NCBI GenBank assembly: GCA_045649345.1
Contig: JAZRPS010000018.1
Location: forward strand, 75,499-139,498
Direction of reading: 5' to 3'
Origin: Candidatus Enterousia sp.
GTDB taxonomy: Bacteria > Pseudomonadota > Alphaproteobacteria > Rs-D84
DNA: 64,000 bases
A program made the position numbers and the translations under genes. Below, piece by piece: positions 11,658-53,444 of this stretch. The notes beneath the pieces were generated by a model, which saw only the letters and a program-made list of their open reading frames with translations, ran no database searches and was not told where the DNA came from. Numbering within the stretch: the first letter of the stretch is position 1; each line of letters begins with the position of its first letter.

Positions 11658-11668
11658 GCATTCCTCCT

Positions 11669-11807
11669 CCAAAAACTTGGCACGCCCTACAGGATTGTAA
11701 ATTCCCATCTTCGCTTTCGCTCAATGGGCCCCTTTCGCCTACGGCTCGAACCTGTGACGGCTCTCATCCTTTGTCCGCGCCAAAAACTTGGCACGCCCTA
11801 CAGGATT
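11669..11807. repeat. Tandem partial duplicate of the tRNA-Arg 3' region: two 28-bp direct repeats (11669-11696 and 11780-11807) flank an 83-bp insert whose first 50 bp (11697-11746) is a conserved core also found at tRNA-Ser
   Basis: ccaaaaacttggcacgccctacaggatt occurs twice. On the tRNA strand the insert reads ...gtcACAGGTTCGA[50-bp core]AATCCTGTAGGGCGTGCCA. This is a tRNA-Arg T-arm/acceptor copy split inside the T-loop. Confidence 0.85.
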
Positions 11808-11865
11808 CGAACCTGTGACCTGCAGATTAGAAATCTGATGCTCTATCCAGCTGAGCTAAGGGCGC
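11789..11865 (-). tRNA. tRNA-Arg (anticodon TCT)
   Basis: GCGCCCTTAGCTCAGCTGGATAGAGCATCAGATTTCTAATCTGCAGGTCACAGGTTCGAATCCTGTAGGGCGTGCCA folds as a clean cloverleaf with anticodon loop TTTCTAA. Confidence 0.9.
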
Positions 11866-22122: not shown

Positions 22123-22360
22123 TTATCCAACCACCGCAACATAAAAATAAAATGCCCAAAACGGGCATTTAATTTTTATAGCGGATGGTGAGGGATTGTA
22201 AATTCCCATCTTCGCTTTCGCTCTATGGGCCCCTTTCGCCTACGGCTTCGAACCCCACGCAACTTCGTTGCTCATCCGGGTGTTCTTATCCAACCACCGC
22301 AACATAAAAATAAAATGCCCAAAACGGGCATTTAATTTTTATGGCGGATGGTGAGGGATT
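22123..22360. repeat. Tandem partial duplicate of the tRNA-Ser 3' region: two 75-bp direct repeats (22123-22197 and 22286-22360, 1 mismatch) flank an 88-bp insert that starts with the same 50-bp core (22198-22247) seen at tRNA-Arg
   Basis: Each repeat contains the tRNA 3' 19 nt plus 56 bp of flank, including the gcccaaaacgggc terminator hairpin. On the tRNA strand the insert reads ...gcgtGGGGTTCGAA[core]AATCCCTCACCATCCGCTA. Confidence 0.85.
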
Positions 22361-22431
22361 CGAACCCCCGGTGGAGTTGCCCCCACAACGGTTTTCAAGA
22401 GCGTCGCATTCGACCGCTCTGCCAACCATCC
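22342..22431 (-). tRNA. Class II tRNA with long variable arm, most likely tRNA-Ser (anticodon TGA)
   Basis: GGATGGT...CTCTTGAAAACCG...GGGGGTTCGAATCCCTCACCATCCGCCA has a 7-bp acceptor stem, a T-loop and a long variable stem. The cloverleaf could not be fully folded by eye. Confidence 0.7.
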
Positions 22432-22568
22432 GAAACTATACACGCCGGCGGTTCTTTCAAACCGACGGTTTTGGTGTTTCACATGACATTGTCATGCTCA
22501 CACTCCACTTCGCTGGCGCTTCGTAGTCAAGACCGCTCATCTCAACACGCTCTGCCAACCATCCGAAA
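22415..22568. repeat. 21-bp direct repeat of the tRNA-Ser 5' end (22415-22435 within the gene; 22548-22568 as an upstream fragment) separated by 112 bp
   Basis: cgctctgccaaccatccgaaa appears twice, covering tRNA positions 1-17 plus 4 nt of flank. The spacer contains a catgacaatgtcatg palindrome and a GATGAGCGGTC motif resembling the tails of the 3' inserts. Confidence 0.8.
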
Positions 22569-22877: not shown

Positions 22878-22997
22878 ATTACAGAGAGGTTTCTTTTTAG
22901 CCTATCGTATTATATCGTCTTGTCAAATAATATATTGTAATTAGATTGACTTTTAACATGCTTGGTATAAAATAATGAAAGATCAAAGGGTTCTTTT

Positions 22998-24281
22998 ATG
23001 ACTAAATATGTTGCTGGGATTGATTTTGGGACAACTAATTCTGCTGCTGCGATTTCTGATGGGGCTACACCACGTATGGTGGATGTAGAAGGCGGCAAAG
23101 ACACAATTCCAACCGCATTATTTTTTGCAGATAAAACCAATAGTGTGCATTATGGTCGTGACGCACAGAATAAATATACAAATGGCGATGGTTCTGGGCG
23201 TTTTATGCGCAGCATGAAGCGTATTTTGGGATCACAAACAATGCGTGGTGGGACGGTCGTAAATGGAAAAATGACCCGCTTTGATACAATTATTGAATAT
23301 TTTGTAAAACACCTGAAACAGAAAATTGATAAGGCAGCAGGCACCAAGGTTGAATATGTTGTTATGGGGCGACCAGTACATTTTCGTGATAACGATCCTG
23401 CTGGTGATGCCCAAGCCCAGGCGGAATTGGAAAAAATCGCACTTGCAGCCGGTTTTAAACATGTCGCATTTCAGTATGAGCCAATTGCAGCAGCCTTTGC
23501 ACACGAACAGAATTTAACATCGGAAAAGCTTGCTTTTGTTGTTGATATTGGCGGTGGGACATCTGACTTTACAGTTATCAGATTATCGCCAGAACGCAAG
23601 TTCAAGTTGGATAGAACCGAAGATGTATTGGCTAATACGGGTGTTCGTATTGGCGGAAATGATTTTGACAAGGCGCTATCAATGAAATCATTTATGCCAT
23701 GTTTTGGATTGGGGACAGAGTATAAATCGTATGATAAAAACATCACAATCCCAACCAGTCCGTATATCAGTCTTTCCACATGGTCATCTGTGAACGAAGT
23801 GTATAACTATAAAACACTGAATATGGTGCGTGGCTATACTGTTTGGGGGCTGGAACCAGAAAAAACAAAACGTCTATATGAAATAATAGAAAATCGTCTG
23901 GGGCATAAAAACTTAGATTATGTTGAAAATGCTAAAATGGCACTATCTTCACAGCAGGACTATGAAATAGTTTTAGACTTTTTAGCAGATGCTCCATTGG
24001 TCAAAACTAATCGTTCTATTTTTGAAGACTCTATCAAGTCTGATATAGCCAAAATTGAAAAGTCTGTTCAAGAGTGCATCGCCCAGGCAGGCATAAAAAA
24101 TACAGATATAGAATTAGTCATTTTAACGGGTGGTTCGACCGAAATTCCATATGTCAGTCGTGTTATGCAATCTTATTTCCCAAATGCAGAATTGTCATCA
24201 GCAAATAAAATGGCAAGTGTGGGCCTTGGCTTGGCATACGATGCAATGCGTCGATTTGCCGAACCACAACATACGAAATAA
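22998..24281 (+). CDS. Hsp70-family protein, YegD-like (actin-like ATPase, NBD only)
   Basis: MTKYVAGIDFGTTNSAAA...ELEKIALAAGFKHVAFQYEPIAAAFAHEQ...VVDIGGGTSDFTVIRLS...RIGGNDFDKALSMK aligns along the whole length with E. coli YegD. Confidence 0.8.
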   Translation: MTKYVAGIDFGTTNSAAAISDGATPRMVDVEGGKDTIPTALFFADKTNSVHYGRDAQNKYTNGDGSGRFMRSMKRILGSQTMRGGTVVNGKMTRFDTIIEYFVKHLKQKIDKAAGTKVEYVVMGRPVHFRDNDPAGDAQAQAELEKIALAAGFKHVAFQYEPIAAAFAHEQNLTSEKLAFVVDIGGGTSDFTVIRLSPERKFKLDRTEDVLANTGVRIGGNDFDKALSMKSFMPCFGLGTEYKSYDKNITIPTSPYISLSTWSSVNEVYNYKTLNMVRGYTVWGLEPEKTKRLYEIIENRLGHKNLDYVENAKMALSSQQDYEIVLDFLADAPLVKTNRSIFEDSIKSDIAKIEKSVQECIAQAGIKNTDIELVILTGGSTEIPYVSRVMQSYFPNAELSSANKMASVGLGLAYDAMRRFAEPQHTK

Positions 24282-24507
24282 AAATTCCCTGTAAAACTGG
24301 ATTTTATATGTGAAGTATCATGTTACGTTCATACCCTGCCAACAAAGTGGCAGTGCGAAAAAGCCTATTGGATGTAAATGGCGCTTTTTTTATGCATTTT
24401 TGCATCCGCAAAAACACATCCGTTTACACACATCAAAAAACATCACCCGCACCCCCGCAGAACTCTGGGATATAAAAAATAGACGTGTGCCGAACACACG
24501 TCTATTA

Positions 24508-24723
24508 TTATCTCTGGTCGGGGCGACAATGAGTAAATTTGCCAAGTATCAAACGCAGGCAAATTGTCACGAATGCCACGCAGATTTATCACATTTTGTG
24601 ATAAAGCGAGTGAAACGTTCGAACCCGACAAAAGGATTTTGTCGTTTGAATCCACAGTTCCACCAAAATAAACAAAAATACCGCATTAACTGCGGTATTT
24701 TTGTTTATCTCTGGTCGGGGCGA
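24508..24723. repeat. 19-bp direct repeat of the tRNA-Pro 3' end plus flank (24508-24526 and 24705-24723) flanking a 178-bp insert
   Basis: ttatctctggtcggggcga occurs twice. On the tRNA strand the insert carries a T-arm-like GTCGGGTTCGAAC, then ~95 nt ending ...caaatttactcattg, then TCGCCCCGACCA. It also contains the bidirectional hairpin taccgcattaactgcggta. Confidence 0.8.
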
Positions 24724-24788
24724 AAGGATTCGAACCTTCGACATCTTGGTCCCAAACCAAGCACTCTACCAGACTGAGCTACACCCCG
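24712..24788 (-). tRNA. tRNA-Pro (anticodon TGG)
   Basis: CGGGGTGTAGCTCAGTCTGGTAGAGTGCTTGGTTTGGGACCAAGATGTCGAAGGTTCGAATCCTTTCGCCCCGACCA folds as a clean cloverleaf. Confidence 0.9.
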
Positions 24789-24885
24789 AAACGAGAGGTA
24801 TTATAACAGCATTTTTTTCAAATGCAAATTTTTATTTACATTTTATGCTTGTTTGATTTCATTAAGTTTTATATCATACAAATGA

Positions 24886-28372: not shown

Positions 28373-28448
28373 TGGTGGAGCTGATCAGGCTCGAACTGAC
28401 GACCCCCTGCTTGCAAAGCAGGTGCTCTACCAACTGAGCTACAACCCC
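28373..28448 (-). tRNA. tRNA-Ala (anticodon TGC)
   Basis: GGGGTTGTAGCTCAGTTGGTAGAGCACCTGCTTTGCAAGCAGGGGGTCGTCAGTTCGAGCCTGATCAGCTCCACCA carries the G3:U70 Ala identity pair. Confidence 0.9.
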
Positions 28449-52560: not shown

Positions 52561-53277
52561 TTATTTTGGCATACCATATAAAGCGATACTTTTTTTTGAA
52601 TATGCGGCCCACATTCTGTCCCCATAACAGAAATGCCACCATTCGCCAGGATAATTTTTGAAGCCTATATTTTCCAAAGCTGTTTTTAAAATTTTTCTGT
52701 TATATTTTTGTTTTGGGGTTAAATGTTTTGATTTTGTACAAGTTTTATTATTTGTTTCCTGATAGTTTGTTCCCATATCGTAATCTTTCCCATTTTTATC
52801 GCACAAAGAAATATCTATGGCACCACCCGTTTGATGACCACCAAAACCAAATCGTGGGTCAGCACAAACAGCCTTGGTTTTAATTATAATTTCTTGTTCT
52901 GATAAATCAGGGTTTGCATTTTTAATTTTTTGATAATTTTTATTCCATAATAGAACCTGTTCATCATGGGAGCGGAATGCAGAATATATTTTAAAAAAAT
53001 GATTATCAGGTAATATCTTTTGAGCTTGTTTAATTTTATCATATACTGTTTTTCGCAGATAGACATTTTTGCGTTGTTTTAATTCTGATGAAAAACGTAT
53101 CGTTTTATCACCAGTTATATCAACCAATTTTTCGCCATTTTCTTTGATTGGTATATTGTTAATTATGGATGCAGGGATGGTCATACGCAGACCCAATCGC
53201 CATAATATATATTTAGTTTTATCTTTTATTTTCTTAATCATGTGAAACATTATAACATAGAGGGTTCGAAAGTTCAA
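52561..53277 (-). CDS. D-Ala-D-Ala dipeptidase (VanX/DdpX, M15D family)
   Basis: SAFRSHDEQ, GGHQTGGAIDISL and EWWHF zinc/catalytic motifs. The gene is markedly AT-richer than its neighbours. Confidence 0.75.
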   Translation of the reverse strand: MNFRTLYVIMFHMIKKIKDKTKYILWRLGLRMTIPASIINNIPIKENGEKLVDITGDKTIRFSSELKQRKNVYLRKTVYDKIKQAQKILPDNHFFKIYSAFRSHDEQVLLWNKNYQKIKNANPDLSEQEIIIKTKAVCADPRFGFGGHQTGGAIDISLCDKNGKDYDMGTNYQETNNKTCTKSKHLTPKQKYNRKILKTALENIGFKNYPGEWWHFCYGDRMWAAYSKKSIALYGMPK

Positions 53278-53369
53278 AAAATAATGATTTTTGATTTGTC
53301 AACATTCGAACTCGGTGGAAATATTAGAAAACAAAAGAAAACTTGCCTCGATAGGCAAGTTTTGAAACT

Positions 53370-53443
53370 TTGGTTGGGGCAGCTGGATTCGAACCAACAC
53401 TGACGGAGTCAGAGTCCGGAGTTCTACCATTAAACTATGCCCC
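53370..53443 (-). tRNA. tRNA-Gln (anticodon CTG)
   Basis: TGGGGCATAGTTTAATGGTAGAACTCCGGACTCTGACTCCGTCAGTGTTGGTTCGAATCCAGCTGCCCCAACCA has the Gln-characteristic U1:A72 pair. Confidence 0.85.
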
Positions 53444-53444
53444 A
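53407..53444. repeat. 38-bp direct repeat, copy 1 (tRNA-Gln positions 1-38 plus 1 nt flank); its partner lies at 56175-56212
   Basis: gtcagagtccggagttctaccattaaactatgccccaa is identical at both sites. Confidence 0.9.

Follow-up and report, generated by a model that had tools for sequence, protein, structure and literature searches.

What kind of element duplicates the end of a transfer RNA (tRNA) gene and then fills the space between the two copies? tRNA genes are classic landing sites of large mobile islands; the tRNA sites described here host nested units of 50-190 bp that encode no protein, and do so in stripped-down genomes. The case that raised the question lies in a stretch of 64,000 nt from Candidatus Enterousia sp. 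(contig JAZRPS010000018.1, positions 75,499 to 139,498 of the forward strand; the window in what follows), where the 3' end of the tRNA-Pro(TGG) gene is repeated on both sides of a 178-bp insert. We found that this insert contains an 87-nt structured element, named core-2 here, which recurs next to many other tRNA genes, and we suggest, with a confidence somewhat short of even, that the insert as a whole is a non-coding, non-autonomous mobile DNA module of nested parts that is moved in trans. Proteins encoded in the window find their matches in metagenome-assembled genomes that carry the label Alphaproteobacteria or Candidatus Enterousia; Enterousia is placed in the uncultured order Rs-D84, where genomes are mostly smaller than 1 Mb (PMC12306168).

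Anatomy of the insert at tRNA-Pro

A repeat search recovered the 19-mer TTATCTCTGGTCGGGGCGA in exactly two copies, offset by 197 nt (Table 1); an exact repeat of this length at this spacing is far beyond chance. The repeat consists of the last 12 nt of tRNA-Pro and 7 nt of flanking DNA, and its copies enclose a non-coding insert (24527-24704) in which no open reading frame (ORF) was found. The original prediction, made from the sequence alone, had described just such a 19-bp repeat around a 178-bp insert, and the sequence strings that it quoted are all present in the insert: on the tRNA strand, GTCGGGTTCGAAC (+ strand 24617-24629) is followed by about 90 nt ending in caaatttactcattg (+ strand 24527-24541) and then by TCGCCCCGACCA. 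The tRNA-Pro(TGG) gene itself is intact, and its sequence is 100% identical in two of the loci fetched for comparison, L071 and L076 (such loci are designated by L numbers throughout). It is one of five tRNA genes in the window, all on the minus strand (ARAGORN, Rfam). Its promoter-like site matches the consensus at 10 of 12 positions in a consensus scan, which is a pattern match only.

The insert is built of three modules, namely a terminator hairpin, a hairpin termed H1 that sits on a partial copy of the T-arm, and core-2. In the first of these, taccgcattaactgcggta forms the centre of an 18-bp perfect inverted repeat (24668-24685 and 24691-24708) with an A-run and a T-run. This hairpin escaped the terminator scan because its A and T runs pair with each other and leave no free T-tail. 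Canonical elements at other tRNA genes have a terminator at the equivalent position, directly after the restored tRNA end. Thus, where the original prediction had seen a hairpin plus T-run that might stop transcripts, the terminator-like structure stands, as a regular part of the element, and a role as terminator is a reasonable reading of it. Hairpins equivalent to H1, with different, compensating stems, are found upstream of the core in other copies, and the partial T-arm copy, decayed in the window, is better kept in L076 and L065, where it reads GTCG(G/T)GTTCGAATCTT. Folded as single-stranded DNA, the segment 24519-24711 forms four hairpins with an energy of -43 kcal/mol, versus -20.4 +/- 3.1 for shuffled sequences (z = -7.2).

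Table 1. Positions, strands and supporting evidence of the features described in the text, in window coordinates.
Feature	Position	Strand	Remarks
Core-2 element, 87 nt	24527-24613	+	Antisense to tRNA-Pro; covariance model; 5' end CAATGAGTAAAT, 3' end GCGAGTGA
Core-2 helix P0	24527-24530 with 24572-24575	+	
Core-2 helix P1	24536-24543 with 24558-24565	+	
Core-2 helix P2	24577-24579 with 24610-24612	+	Inner hairpin 24584-24605
Direct repeat copy 1	24508-24526	.	Displaced tRNA-Pro 3' fragment (12 nt) + 7 nt flank
Direct repeat copy 2	24705-24723	.	Within and just past intact tRNA-Pro; tRNA strand TCGCCCCGACCA + GAGATAA; 100% identity
Decayed partial T-arm copy of tRNA-Pro	24614-24629	-	GTCGGGTTCGAACGTT versus GTCGAAGGTTCGAATCCTT in the gene
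H1 hairpin	24617-24653	.	GTTCGAACCCGAC / GTCGTTTGAATCC, inverted T-arm-like pair, 11-nt loop; sequence and fold
Element-borne bidirectional terminator-like hairpin	24668-24708	.	Directly after restored tRNA-Pro 3' end
Second terminator-like hairpin	24475-24509	.	Just past displaced tRNA-Pro fragment; inverted-repeat search and terminator scan, both strands
tRNA-Pro(TGG), intact	24712-24788	-	ARAGORN; Rfam tRNA 66.9 bits
Promoter-like site of tRNA-Pro	24800-24828	-	TTTGCA-17-TATAAT, TG before second hexamer
Type-1 core with GGTTCGA flank	11697-11752	-	Partial T-arm copy downstream of tRNA-Arg(TCT)
Type-1 core with GGTTCGA flank	22198-22254	-	Downstream of tRNA-Ser(TGA)
tRNA-Arg(TCT)	11789-11865	-	
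tRNA-Ser(TGA)	22342-22431	-	
tRNA-Ala	28373-28448	-	
tRNA-Gln(CTG)	53371-53444	-	
Mpi-type serine recombinase, 202 aa	61576-62181	-	NCBIfam and Pfam

Core-2 is a family of structured elements

When the insert was compared with the fetched loci by blastn, L023 (94% over 69 nt, E = 2e-25), L031 and L009 proved similar to its promoter-distal part, and scanning metagenomes with the conserved blocks of core-2 gave 34 further loci from rumen and gut samples. Altogether 42 core-2 copies were collected from the window and from genome and metagenome loci of gut and rumen Alphaproteobacteria (Ca. Enterousia, Rs-D84). The consensus, CAAYRAGTAGAT - P1 hairpin - ATCGTCACGRWTGCCCCGCAG - P2 hairpin - CGAGGGA, spans 68-88 nt. 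Most copies (26 of 42) lie no more than 300 nt downstream of a tRNA gene on the same strand, 16 isoacceptors being represented; in the canonical arrangement (26 copies), core-2 shares the strand of the tRNA and is flanked by the GGTTCGA and ATCC of a partial tRNA copy.

A covariance model was built from 38 distinct copies and matched the copy in the window, itself one of the 38 training sequences, at 79.5 bits (E ~5e-24; match span 24519-24619, + strand). The blastn match to L023 supports the membership of the window copy independently of the model. The helices were derived with RNAalifold and by explicit pair counting. P0 pairs CAAY with RWTG, and one of its pairs is U-A in 20 copies and C-G in 17; P1 comprises 8 + 2 bp, five plus two of which are changed on both sides; P2 is a CCC/GGG helix that closes a variable hairpin. 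In the alignment, 95.7% of the helix cells are paired versus 82.3% in shuffles, and 104 cells are changed on both sides versus 34.2 in shuffles, a number reached by none of 500. When the partner columns were slid as a control, pairing was at most 48%. All pairs form in the window copy, whose unusual GCCACGCAG...GAGTGA keeps P2 by a compensated A-U pair at a position where 36 copies have C-G; it is one of two copies compensated in this manner. The joining regions between the helices are nearly invariant.

This family is apparently undescribed. Searched against Rfam 15 with gathering and with permissive thresholds (E <= 5-10), the window, the Pro region, a canonical type-2 locus and the element at tRNA-Arg returned tRNAs only, and non-tRNA matches, small ribozymes included, scored no more than 25 bits, far below threshold. 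A canonical element had no blastn match in plasmid and phage collections; viral contigs scanned with the type-1 (see below), Pro-insert and core-2 motifs gave either nothing or one chance match in high-GC coding sequence; and in the literature on tRNA T-loop mini-elements we found no description of the family. A hammerhead-like reading of GGATGAG...GAAA was rejected because the essential C3 and U4 are missing, and a reading of GAGCCGTA... as domain V of a group II intron because the strand order is wrong. Next to the insert, at 24441-24474, CATCACCCGCACCCCCGCAGAACTCTGGGATAT resembles the 3' half of core-2 (..TCACGAATGCCCCGCAG..GGGAAT). As a second, degenerate core-2 remnant it is unsupported by the covariance model; it may be a decayed remnant or a chance similarity.

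Core-2 inserts without target duplication

The insertion can be read from several loci (junctions are marked ^). In L059 the site is empty (...GTCCCCACGAGTTTTTATAG...), and its counterpart in L040 carries 68 nt of core-2 after CACGA, with no duplication (CCCCACGA^68 nt^(G/A)TTTTTATAG). In L031 a core-2 copy lies inside a core of the type-1 family, at GTAGGCGA^...^AAGGGG, and taking this copy out restores GCCGTAGGCGA^AAGGGG exactly. L047 has a core-2 copy directly after the CGAGGGA end of another copy. Judged from these site comparisons, core-2 is shown to be a discrete insertion unit that leaves no target duplication. TTCGA is the left flank of 23 copies, GGCGA and GTTCA that of 6 copies each, and the rest are single variants; almost all of these flanks end in GA, and so does core-2. 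The target is therefore a GGNNCGA-like motif followed by A, of which the tRNA T-loop is the commonest genomic instance. It takes two forms here: tRNA T-loops offer GGTTCGA^A, and the strand complementary to the tRNA-Pro acceptor arm offers GGGGCGA^A.

The second form accounts for all six core-2 copies found on the opposite strand, which are at tRNA-Pro(TGG) in the window, L061 (two copies), L065, L071 and L076. In the window the junctions are GGGGCGA^CAATGAG...GAGTGA^AACG, so that the left flank is the + strand end of repeat copy 1; the same GGGGCGA junction is present in the other four loci and in a seventh copy, L023, at a contig end. The left flank of the Pro sites on the + strand, TGGTCGG(G/A)GCGA, is the complement of the tRNA 3' end. 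On the right, L065 and L076 have AAGATTCGAAC; the window, L071 and one of the two L061 copies have AACGTTCGAAC, and the remaining L061 copy has AATGTTCGAAC. In the intact tRNA-Pro gene the complementary strand reads TGGTCGGGGCGA^AAGGATTCGAAC, and the Pro sites have GGGGCGA^...^AAG(G)ATTCGAAC around core-2 on the + strand. From these flanks, core-2 splits a partial tRNA-Pro copy (T-arm to CCA) between the 3' half of the T-stem and the acceptor strand, and not in the T-loop. The original prediction had placed the core in the T-loop after TTCGAA, which is at odds with L065 and L076, where a nearly complete T-arm copy (GTTCGAATCTT) precedes the core and the core lies between T-stem 3' half and acceptor strand; the apparent TTCGAA junction is what remains of the decayed T-arm copy, adjoining the 3' end of core-2.

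Comparison of orthologous tRNA-Pro sites

Orthologous tRNA-Pro(TGG) sites were anchored on the neighbouring 331-aa gene. The site is empty in L074 and L075, in which the tRNA is followed by its native terminator. L065 has one unit and L061 two tandem units; L071 has a unit with a different H1 and, after it, the leftover 'gagataa + terminator'. In L076 there is a unit as in the window, with a direct repeat of 14 bp (at other tRNAs, direct repeats measure 15-75 bp), and the DNA past its second repeat is the DNA that directly follows tRNA-Pro in L077. The latter has a different insert at this site, ending in TCGCCCCGACCA.

Between the window and L076, the unit is 89.9% identical over 178 nt, versus 69% for the adjacent gene and 76% for the spacer with the tRNA promoter. 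The modules differ in their similarity: compared with the window, core-2 is 95% identical in L071 and 84% in L076, only 12 of 52 nt of the H1/partial T-arm module align in L071 versus 98% identity in L076, and the terminator hairpin (24668-24708) is 97% identical in both. As far as these alignments go, the modules are shown to reassort, and the units to vary in presence and to occur in tandem.

Six loci outside the window (L012, L025, L034, L040, L059 and L077) contain a third kind of small module, ~85 nt long and bounded by the terminal inverted repeats GAATACGAGAATACACAATT...ATTGTGTATTGAGG, between a core end and a tRNA fragment. In L077 it occupies the tRNA-Pro(TGG) site, where the window has its own element.

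Could such units simply be inert scars, that is, decayed attL/attR sites of integrase-borne islands that once resided at tRNA-Pro, with no present activity or function? A direct repeat of a tRNA 3' end is the classic signature of tRNA-targeted integrative elements, and the repeat here consists of just that; small cargo blocks bounded by tRNA fragments lie nearby (an Hsp70-like block in the window and, in L017, a methyltransferase between two elements). Random decay, however, does not predict the tandem copies and the reassortment of modules, nor do scars explain why the element is more conserved than the flanking gene, why compensatory substitutions keep three helices, or why the junctions recur precisely at no fewer than 16 tRNA species. 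Nor was an integrase seen near the ~70 element copies: Phage_integrase is absent from the recurrent families around them and from the window. We regard inert scars as improbable.

The elements at tRNA-Arg and tRNA-Ser

Two further sites in the window have a similar layout. At tRNA-Arg(TCT) a 28-bp direct repeat encloses an 83-nt element, and at tRNA-Ser(TGA) a 75-bp direct repeat encloses one of 88 nt. Their cores, designated type-1, share the conserved 5' block GCCRTAGGCGAAAGGGGCCC, which matches only the Arg and Ser copies in the window even when up to 3 mismatches are allowed. Scanned over one genome per species, it gave 28 loci, all from the Enterousia/Rs-D84 clade. With the window copies and L004-L007 added and redundant loci set aside, there are 31 type-1 copies, 24 of which follow a tRNA on their own strand at a distance of at most 300 nt (Arg-TCT, Arg-ACG, Ser-TGA, Gln-CTG, Tyr-GTA or Pro-GGG).

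The layout of type-1 sites is constant. A site starts with the intact tRNA and the direct repeat, which extends from AATCC of the T-loop to CCA or up to 55 nt further. After this, and usually after a terminator, comes the H1 hairpin, the 3' strand of which ends in GGTTCGA. The ~50-nt core (GCCRTAGGCGAAAGGGGCCC-hairpin-GGGAATT(T)AC) is next, then the repeat for the second time, as the displaced 3' fragment of the tRNA, and finally the chromosomal terminator. The core hairpin, closed by CCC/GGG, shows compensatory changes across copies, and GGGAATT(T)AC stands directly before AATCC; the insertion point is GGTTCGA^ATCC in the T-loop. In RNAalifold, the GGGG of type-1 pairs with TCCY at the start of the displaced tRNA fragment, and a helix like that of the T-stem would thereby be rebuilt around the insert; since these columns are nearly invariant, the helix is unproven. 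A mini-tRNA, with a 5' acceptor strand upstream of H1, was given up as a general feature because it fits the Gln and Ser copies and not those at Arg or Tyr.

Is the Pro insert a relative of these cores? The original prediction had read it as a diverged and longer member of the family of the 50-bp core, with its insertion point in the T-loop after TTCGAA and with AATTTAC as a shared end. Both kinds of site do have GGTTCGA(A) and AATTTAC, but pairwise alignment gave no significant similarity between Pro and Arg/Ser, the local alignments containing only GGTTCGA(A) (p = 0.43 and 0.02 versus shuffles). At E <= 1 the core-2 covariance model detected no other copy in the window, neither type-1 core included. 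The Pro insert lacks the 5' block, the CCC/GGG-GGGAATT(T)AC-AATCC order and the T-loop insertion. The AATTTAC motifs are unrelated and lie on opposite strands of the respective elements: on the tRNA strand of the Arg/Ser core, AATTTAC forms the 3' end (end GGGAATTTAC), whereas in the Pro insert it is the reverse complement of the GTAAATT in the 5' end of core-2 (CAATGAGTAAAT) and is followed by TCATTG and TCGCCCC, not by the AATCC of a tRNA fragment. With a different insertion point as well, the predicted reading is hardly credible, and it fails the test that the prediction itself had proposed, a statistically supported similarity to the Arg/Ser core. What survives of the proposed kinship is the overall layout and the shared target motif. 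The Arg, Ser and Pro sites of the window all follow one order of parts, which recurs in 24 of 31 type-1 and 26 of 42 type-2 copies, and type-1 and core-2 do belong to one system, given their common target motif and the nesting of core-2 in a type-1 core in L031.

Two observations concern other parts of these sites. The tRNA-Gln(CTG) gene of the window is an empty type-1 site, occupied by an element in three related species; just downstream of the gene (53263-53371) there are two T-loop-like motifs, GAGTTCGAATG and TTTCGAACCC, about 40 nt apart, which precede the promoter-like TATAAT of the next gene. At tRNA-Arg (11660-11700), the tRNA gene, its type-1 element and the ORF that comes next are not set apart by a terminator; this ORF has 130 aa and no Pfam match, and its ribosome-binding site GGAGGAGG begins directly past the displaced tRNA-Arg fragment; co-transcription of the three is possible.

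Such an arrangement at tRNA-Arg would suit another explanation, in which the core is a functional structured RNA (a small RNA, a processing signal or a ribozyme) made from the tRNA trailer and its spread is due to incidental T-arm recombination. The strongly covarying helices and very conserved joining regions are what one would expect of an RNA, as are the greater stability of type-1 cores on the tRNA strand (19 of 21 copies), their GNRA-like loops and the better conservation of the element relative to its flanks. Most copies, however, have a terminator between the tRNA and the core and no room for a promoter, and the core at tRNA-Pro(TGG) is antisense to the tRNA and lies between two bidirectional terminators. 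Copies nested in other elements and at non-tRNA sites fit a parasite better than a gene, and no Rfam family was matched even at the permissive thresholds. We consider an RNA function distinctly unlikely and hold both this reading and that of inert scars to be less likely than a mobile module.

How the units might move

On the mobile-module reading, the insert would have two layers. The outer one would carry its own tRNA-Pro 3' end, the terminator and H1 on the T-arm copy; on arrival at a tRNA gene it would leave the gene intact and displace the original 3' end downstream as a spare fragment, and the direct repeat would arise because the replacement end displaces the original one. The inner layer would be core-2, lying within the spare fragment and entering DNA 3' of a GGNNCGA-like motif plus A, without target duplication. 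Insertions into working tRNA genes would presumably be lethal, and copies would sit in spare fragments or in other elements because only those persist. The core, as a folded single strand, would most likely be recognized by a putative enzyme supplied in trans, in the manner of the HUH/Y1 enzymes of IS200/IS605 or REP (repetitive extragenic palindromic) systems, and the outer layer may spread by recombination anchored on the invariant tRNA or by site-specific recombination. By analogy with those systems, a single-strand (HUH-like) mechanism fits the anatomy of core-2, which has hairpins near both ends, no terminal inverted repeats, GTAG at the foot of P1 and insertion 3' of a fixed motif.

A non-autonomous module is also in keeping with the surroundings of the elements, where no linked enzyme appears: for the 247 ORFs within 3 kb of ~70 element copies, summaries of the 25 most frequent Pfam families show housekeeping and small cargo families, with no recombinase, transposase or reverse transcriptase among the recurrent ones.

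Several points weigh against this reading. The ~476 kb of DNA sampled, which amount to ~7% of one genome and a scatter of other loci, gave no HUH/Y1 transposase, the sole probe being a tblastn search with an IS200 TnpA sequence, and no Y1/RAYT gene is annotated among the window proteins or listed in those Pfam summaries. HUH transposition does not produce a direct repeat like that of the outer layer, which calls for a second process. Movement is read from comparison between species only, and the conservation of the unit above its flanks could reflect selection for a cellular function instead of recent spread. As evidence for the strand that folds, the 8 G-U versus 3 C-A pairs among the curated ones are weak, and the G-U count in minimum-free-energy folds is contradictory for the core-2 strand. 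Finally, active transposons are unexpected in host genomes of less than 1 Mb (PMC12306168).

The main rival for the engine is encoded in the window itself. The clade's conserved Mpi-family serine recombinase might move, invert or exchange the units as double-stranded DNA, by a 2-nt crossover (GA) in T-arm-like dyad sites, the sites being the tRNA T-arm and the H1 palindromes (..AACC-N-GGTT..). The 202-aa protein scores 297.5 bits with the NCBIfam equivalog model of the 'master DNA invertase Mpi family', above the cut-off of 272, has a Pfam Resolvase domain and is the only recombinase seen in the annotation of the window. Homologues, 76-84% identical and so more alike than the other two window proteins that we compared across relatives, form more than 100 protein clusters from gut Alphaproteobacteria, and the gene is always tail-to-tail with an S8 peptidase gene in relatives, a conserved placement that marks it as one of the clade's core genes. 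That a genome of less than 1 Mb should keep a conserved global recombinase is notable in itself. Insertions without target duplication and with GA at both junctions are what a 2-nt crossover would give. Hin/Gin crossover sites have ..AAACC NN GGTTT.. centres, and what we take to be the Mpi repeat consensus resembles AAACGTTCGA (at 24613-24622).

On the other side, a double-stranded circle of 70-90 bp is physically implausible as an intermediate, and the four half-sites that the junctions would require (..GGTTC, ATCC.., ..CGAGG, CAAYRAG..) do not reduce to one common half-site. The compensatory changes in P1 and P2 are arbitrary, which indicates pairing within one strand and not half-sites read by a protein. 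The Mpi-like motif is not enriched in the window (3 matches versus 0.75 expected; 5 of 100 shuffles reach 3), and no inversion polymorphism was seen among the orthologous loci, all six Pro loci having one orientation. Inverted T-arm motifs flank only the 11-nt loop of H1 and a tRNA-disrupting pair (24614-24626 and 24726-24738). An invertible switch giving tRNA-Pro an alternative 3' end was rejected because the inverted product would not pair with the 5' strand of the tRNA. On its sequence assignment the Mpi-type protein is a candidate for acting on the elements, but we judge it unlikely to be their engine.

A broader proposal, still on the unlikely side though somewhat less so, is that structured elements of 50-90 nt that home to GGTTCGA^A of the tRNA T-loop and its look-alikes without target duplication make up an undescribed class, resident in genomes of less than 1 Mb without a recognizable transposase. 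They would be moved by the Mpi-type serine recombinase in an unprecedented way, or by a single-strand enzyme or as a self-inserting nucleic acid, with spare tRNA ends serving as safe harbours.

Cargo and displaced tRNA fragments

The window contains an Hsp70-like gene block (22946-24341). Its Hsp70/YegD-like gene has ~90-93% DNA identity in relatives, and this identity extends only across the block, which ends in a degenerate tRNA-Ser 3' fragment at 24328-24341 (..CTGCCA in the window, ..CCGCCA in L001 and L004). Both flanks vary among relatives, the downstream neighbour being a glycosyltransferase gene, an ABC-F gene or a restriction-modification system. In this the block resembles a cassette that has a tRNA fragment as its boundary. 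About 115 nt upstream of the intact tRNA-Ser gene lies a displaced piece of a tRNA-Ser 5' end, GGATGGTTGGCAGAGCG (22548-22564), which suggests that the 5' side of tRNAs is also replaced or duplicated in the Enterousia genome. In L017 (400-1930), a 320-aa ORF stands between two nearly identical type-1 elements, each with the same downstream flank. It encodes a putative S-adenosylmethionine-dependent methyltransferase, and methyltransferase families recur in the pooled Pfam scan that includes it; the ORF with its flanking elements looks like a small cargo cassette between copies.

Significance and comparison with known systems

The elements explain odd partial tRNA copies and tandem terminators that would confuse the annotation of metagenome-assembled genomes, and they mark spots where small cargo genes (restriction-modification, methyltransferase, chaperone) swap between species. 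If the units are mobile, they have a new target rule, a tRNA T-loop motif, together with a compact, strongly constrained DNA/RNA fold, and offer a tractable entry to a new site-specific insertion activity. Should the core give rise to a structured RNA instead, that RNA represents a new family, one that Rfam lacks.

Several known systems share part of this anatomy. Recombination sites that would be specified by a folded single strand and not by sequence, arrays of small cassettes at one attachment point and an AAC...GTT triplet pair, here in H1, are reminiscent of integron attC sites. The core, unlike attC, forms no single long imperfect palindrome, no IntI was found, and GTTCGAA misses the R box GTTRRRY. 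The resemblance to the serine invertase systems Mpi (Bacteroides fragilis), Hin and Gin consists of the Mpi-family gene in the window, the ..AACC-N-GGTT.. palindromes and the common junction dinucleotide. In contrast to those systems, we found no invertible promoter segment, no distant inverted repeats and no orientation polymorphism; the covariation of the hairpins is left unexplained by an invertase, and the link is circumstantial.

Another comparison is with the tRNA-targeted integrative elements and their derivatives that lack an integrase (cis-mobilizable elements, CIMEs, and tycheposon-like arrays of partial tRNAs), in which the repeat is the 3' part of a tRNA, the gene is restored by the element, new units lie next to the tRNA with older remnants outward, and cargo is bounded by tRNA fragments. 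Unlike integrative islands, the unit here measures only ~190 bp and has no integrase in its vicinity, a structured core interrupts the spare tRNA fragment, and in the Pro sublineage the repeat boundary lies in the acceptor arm, not in a loop.

Core-2 itself resembles the palindrome-associated transposable elements (PATEs) derived from IS200/IS605 and the REP/REPIN elements, dependent on TnpA and RAYT, respectively. Like these, it is small and non-coding, has no terminal inverted repeats, makes no target-site duplication, is inserted 3' of a short specific motif, has covarying hairpins near both ends and would be supplied with its enzyme in trans. GTAG-tagged REPs (PMC3733652, PMC3333891) have GTAG at the foot of the first hairpin, and so does core-2. 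The differences are the lack of a Y1/RAYT gene in the sampled DNA, the 7-nt T-loop-like target, the second layer that duplicates the tRNA 3' end and, relative to REPs, the P0 helix and the long conserved joining regions. By analogy, then, the family would work most like HUH-dependent miniature elements nested in island-type duplications of tRNA ends.

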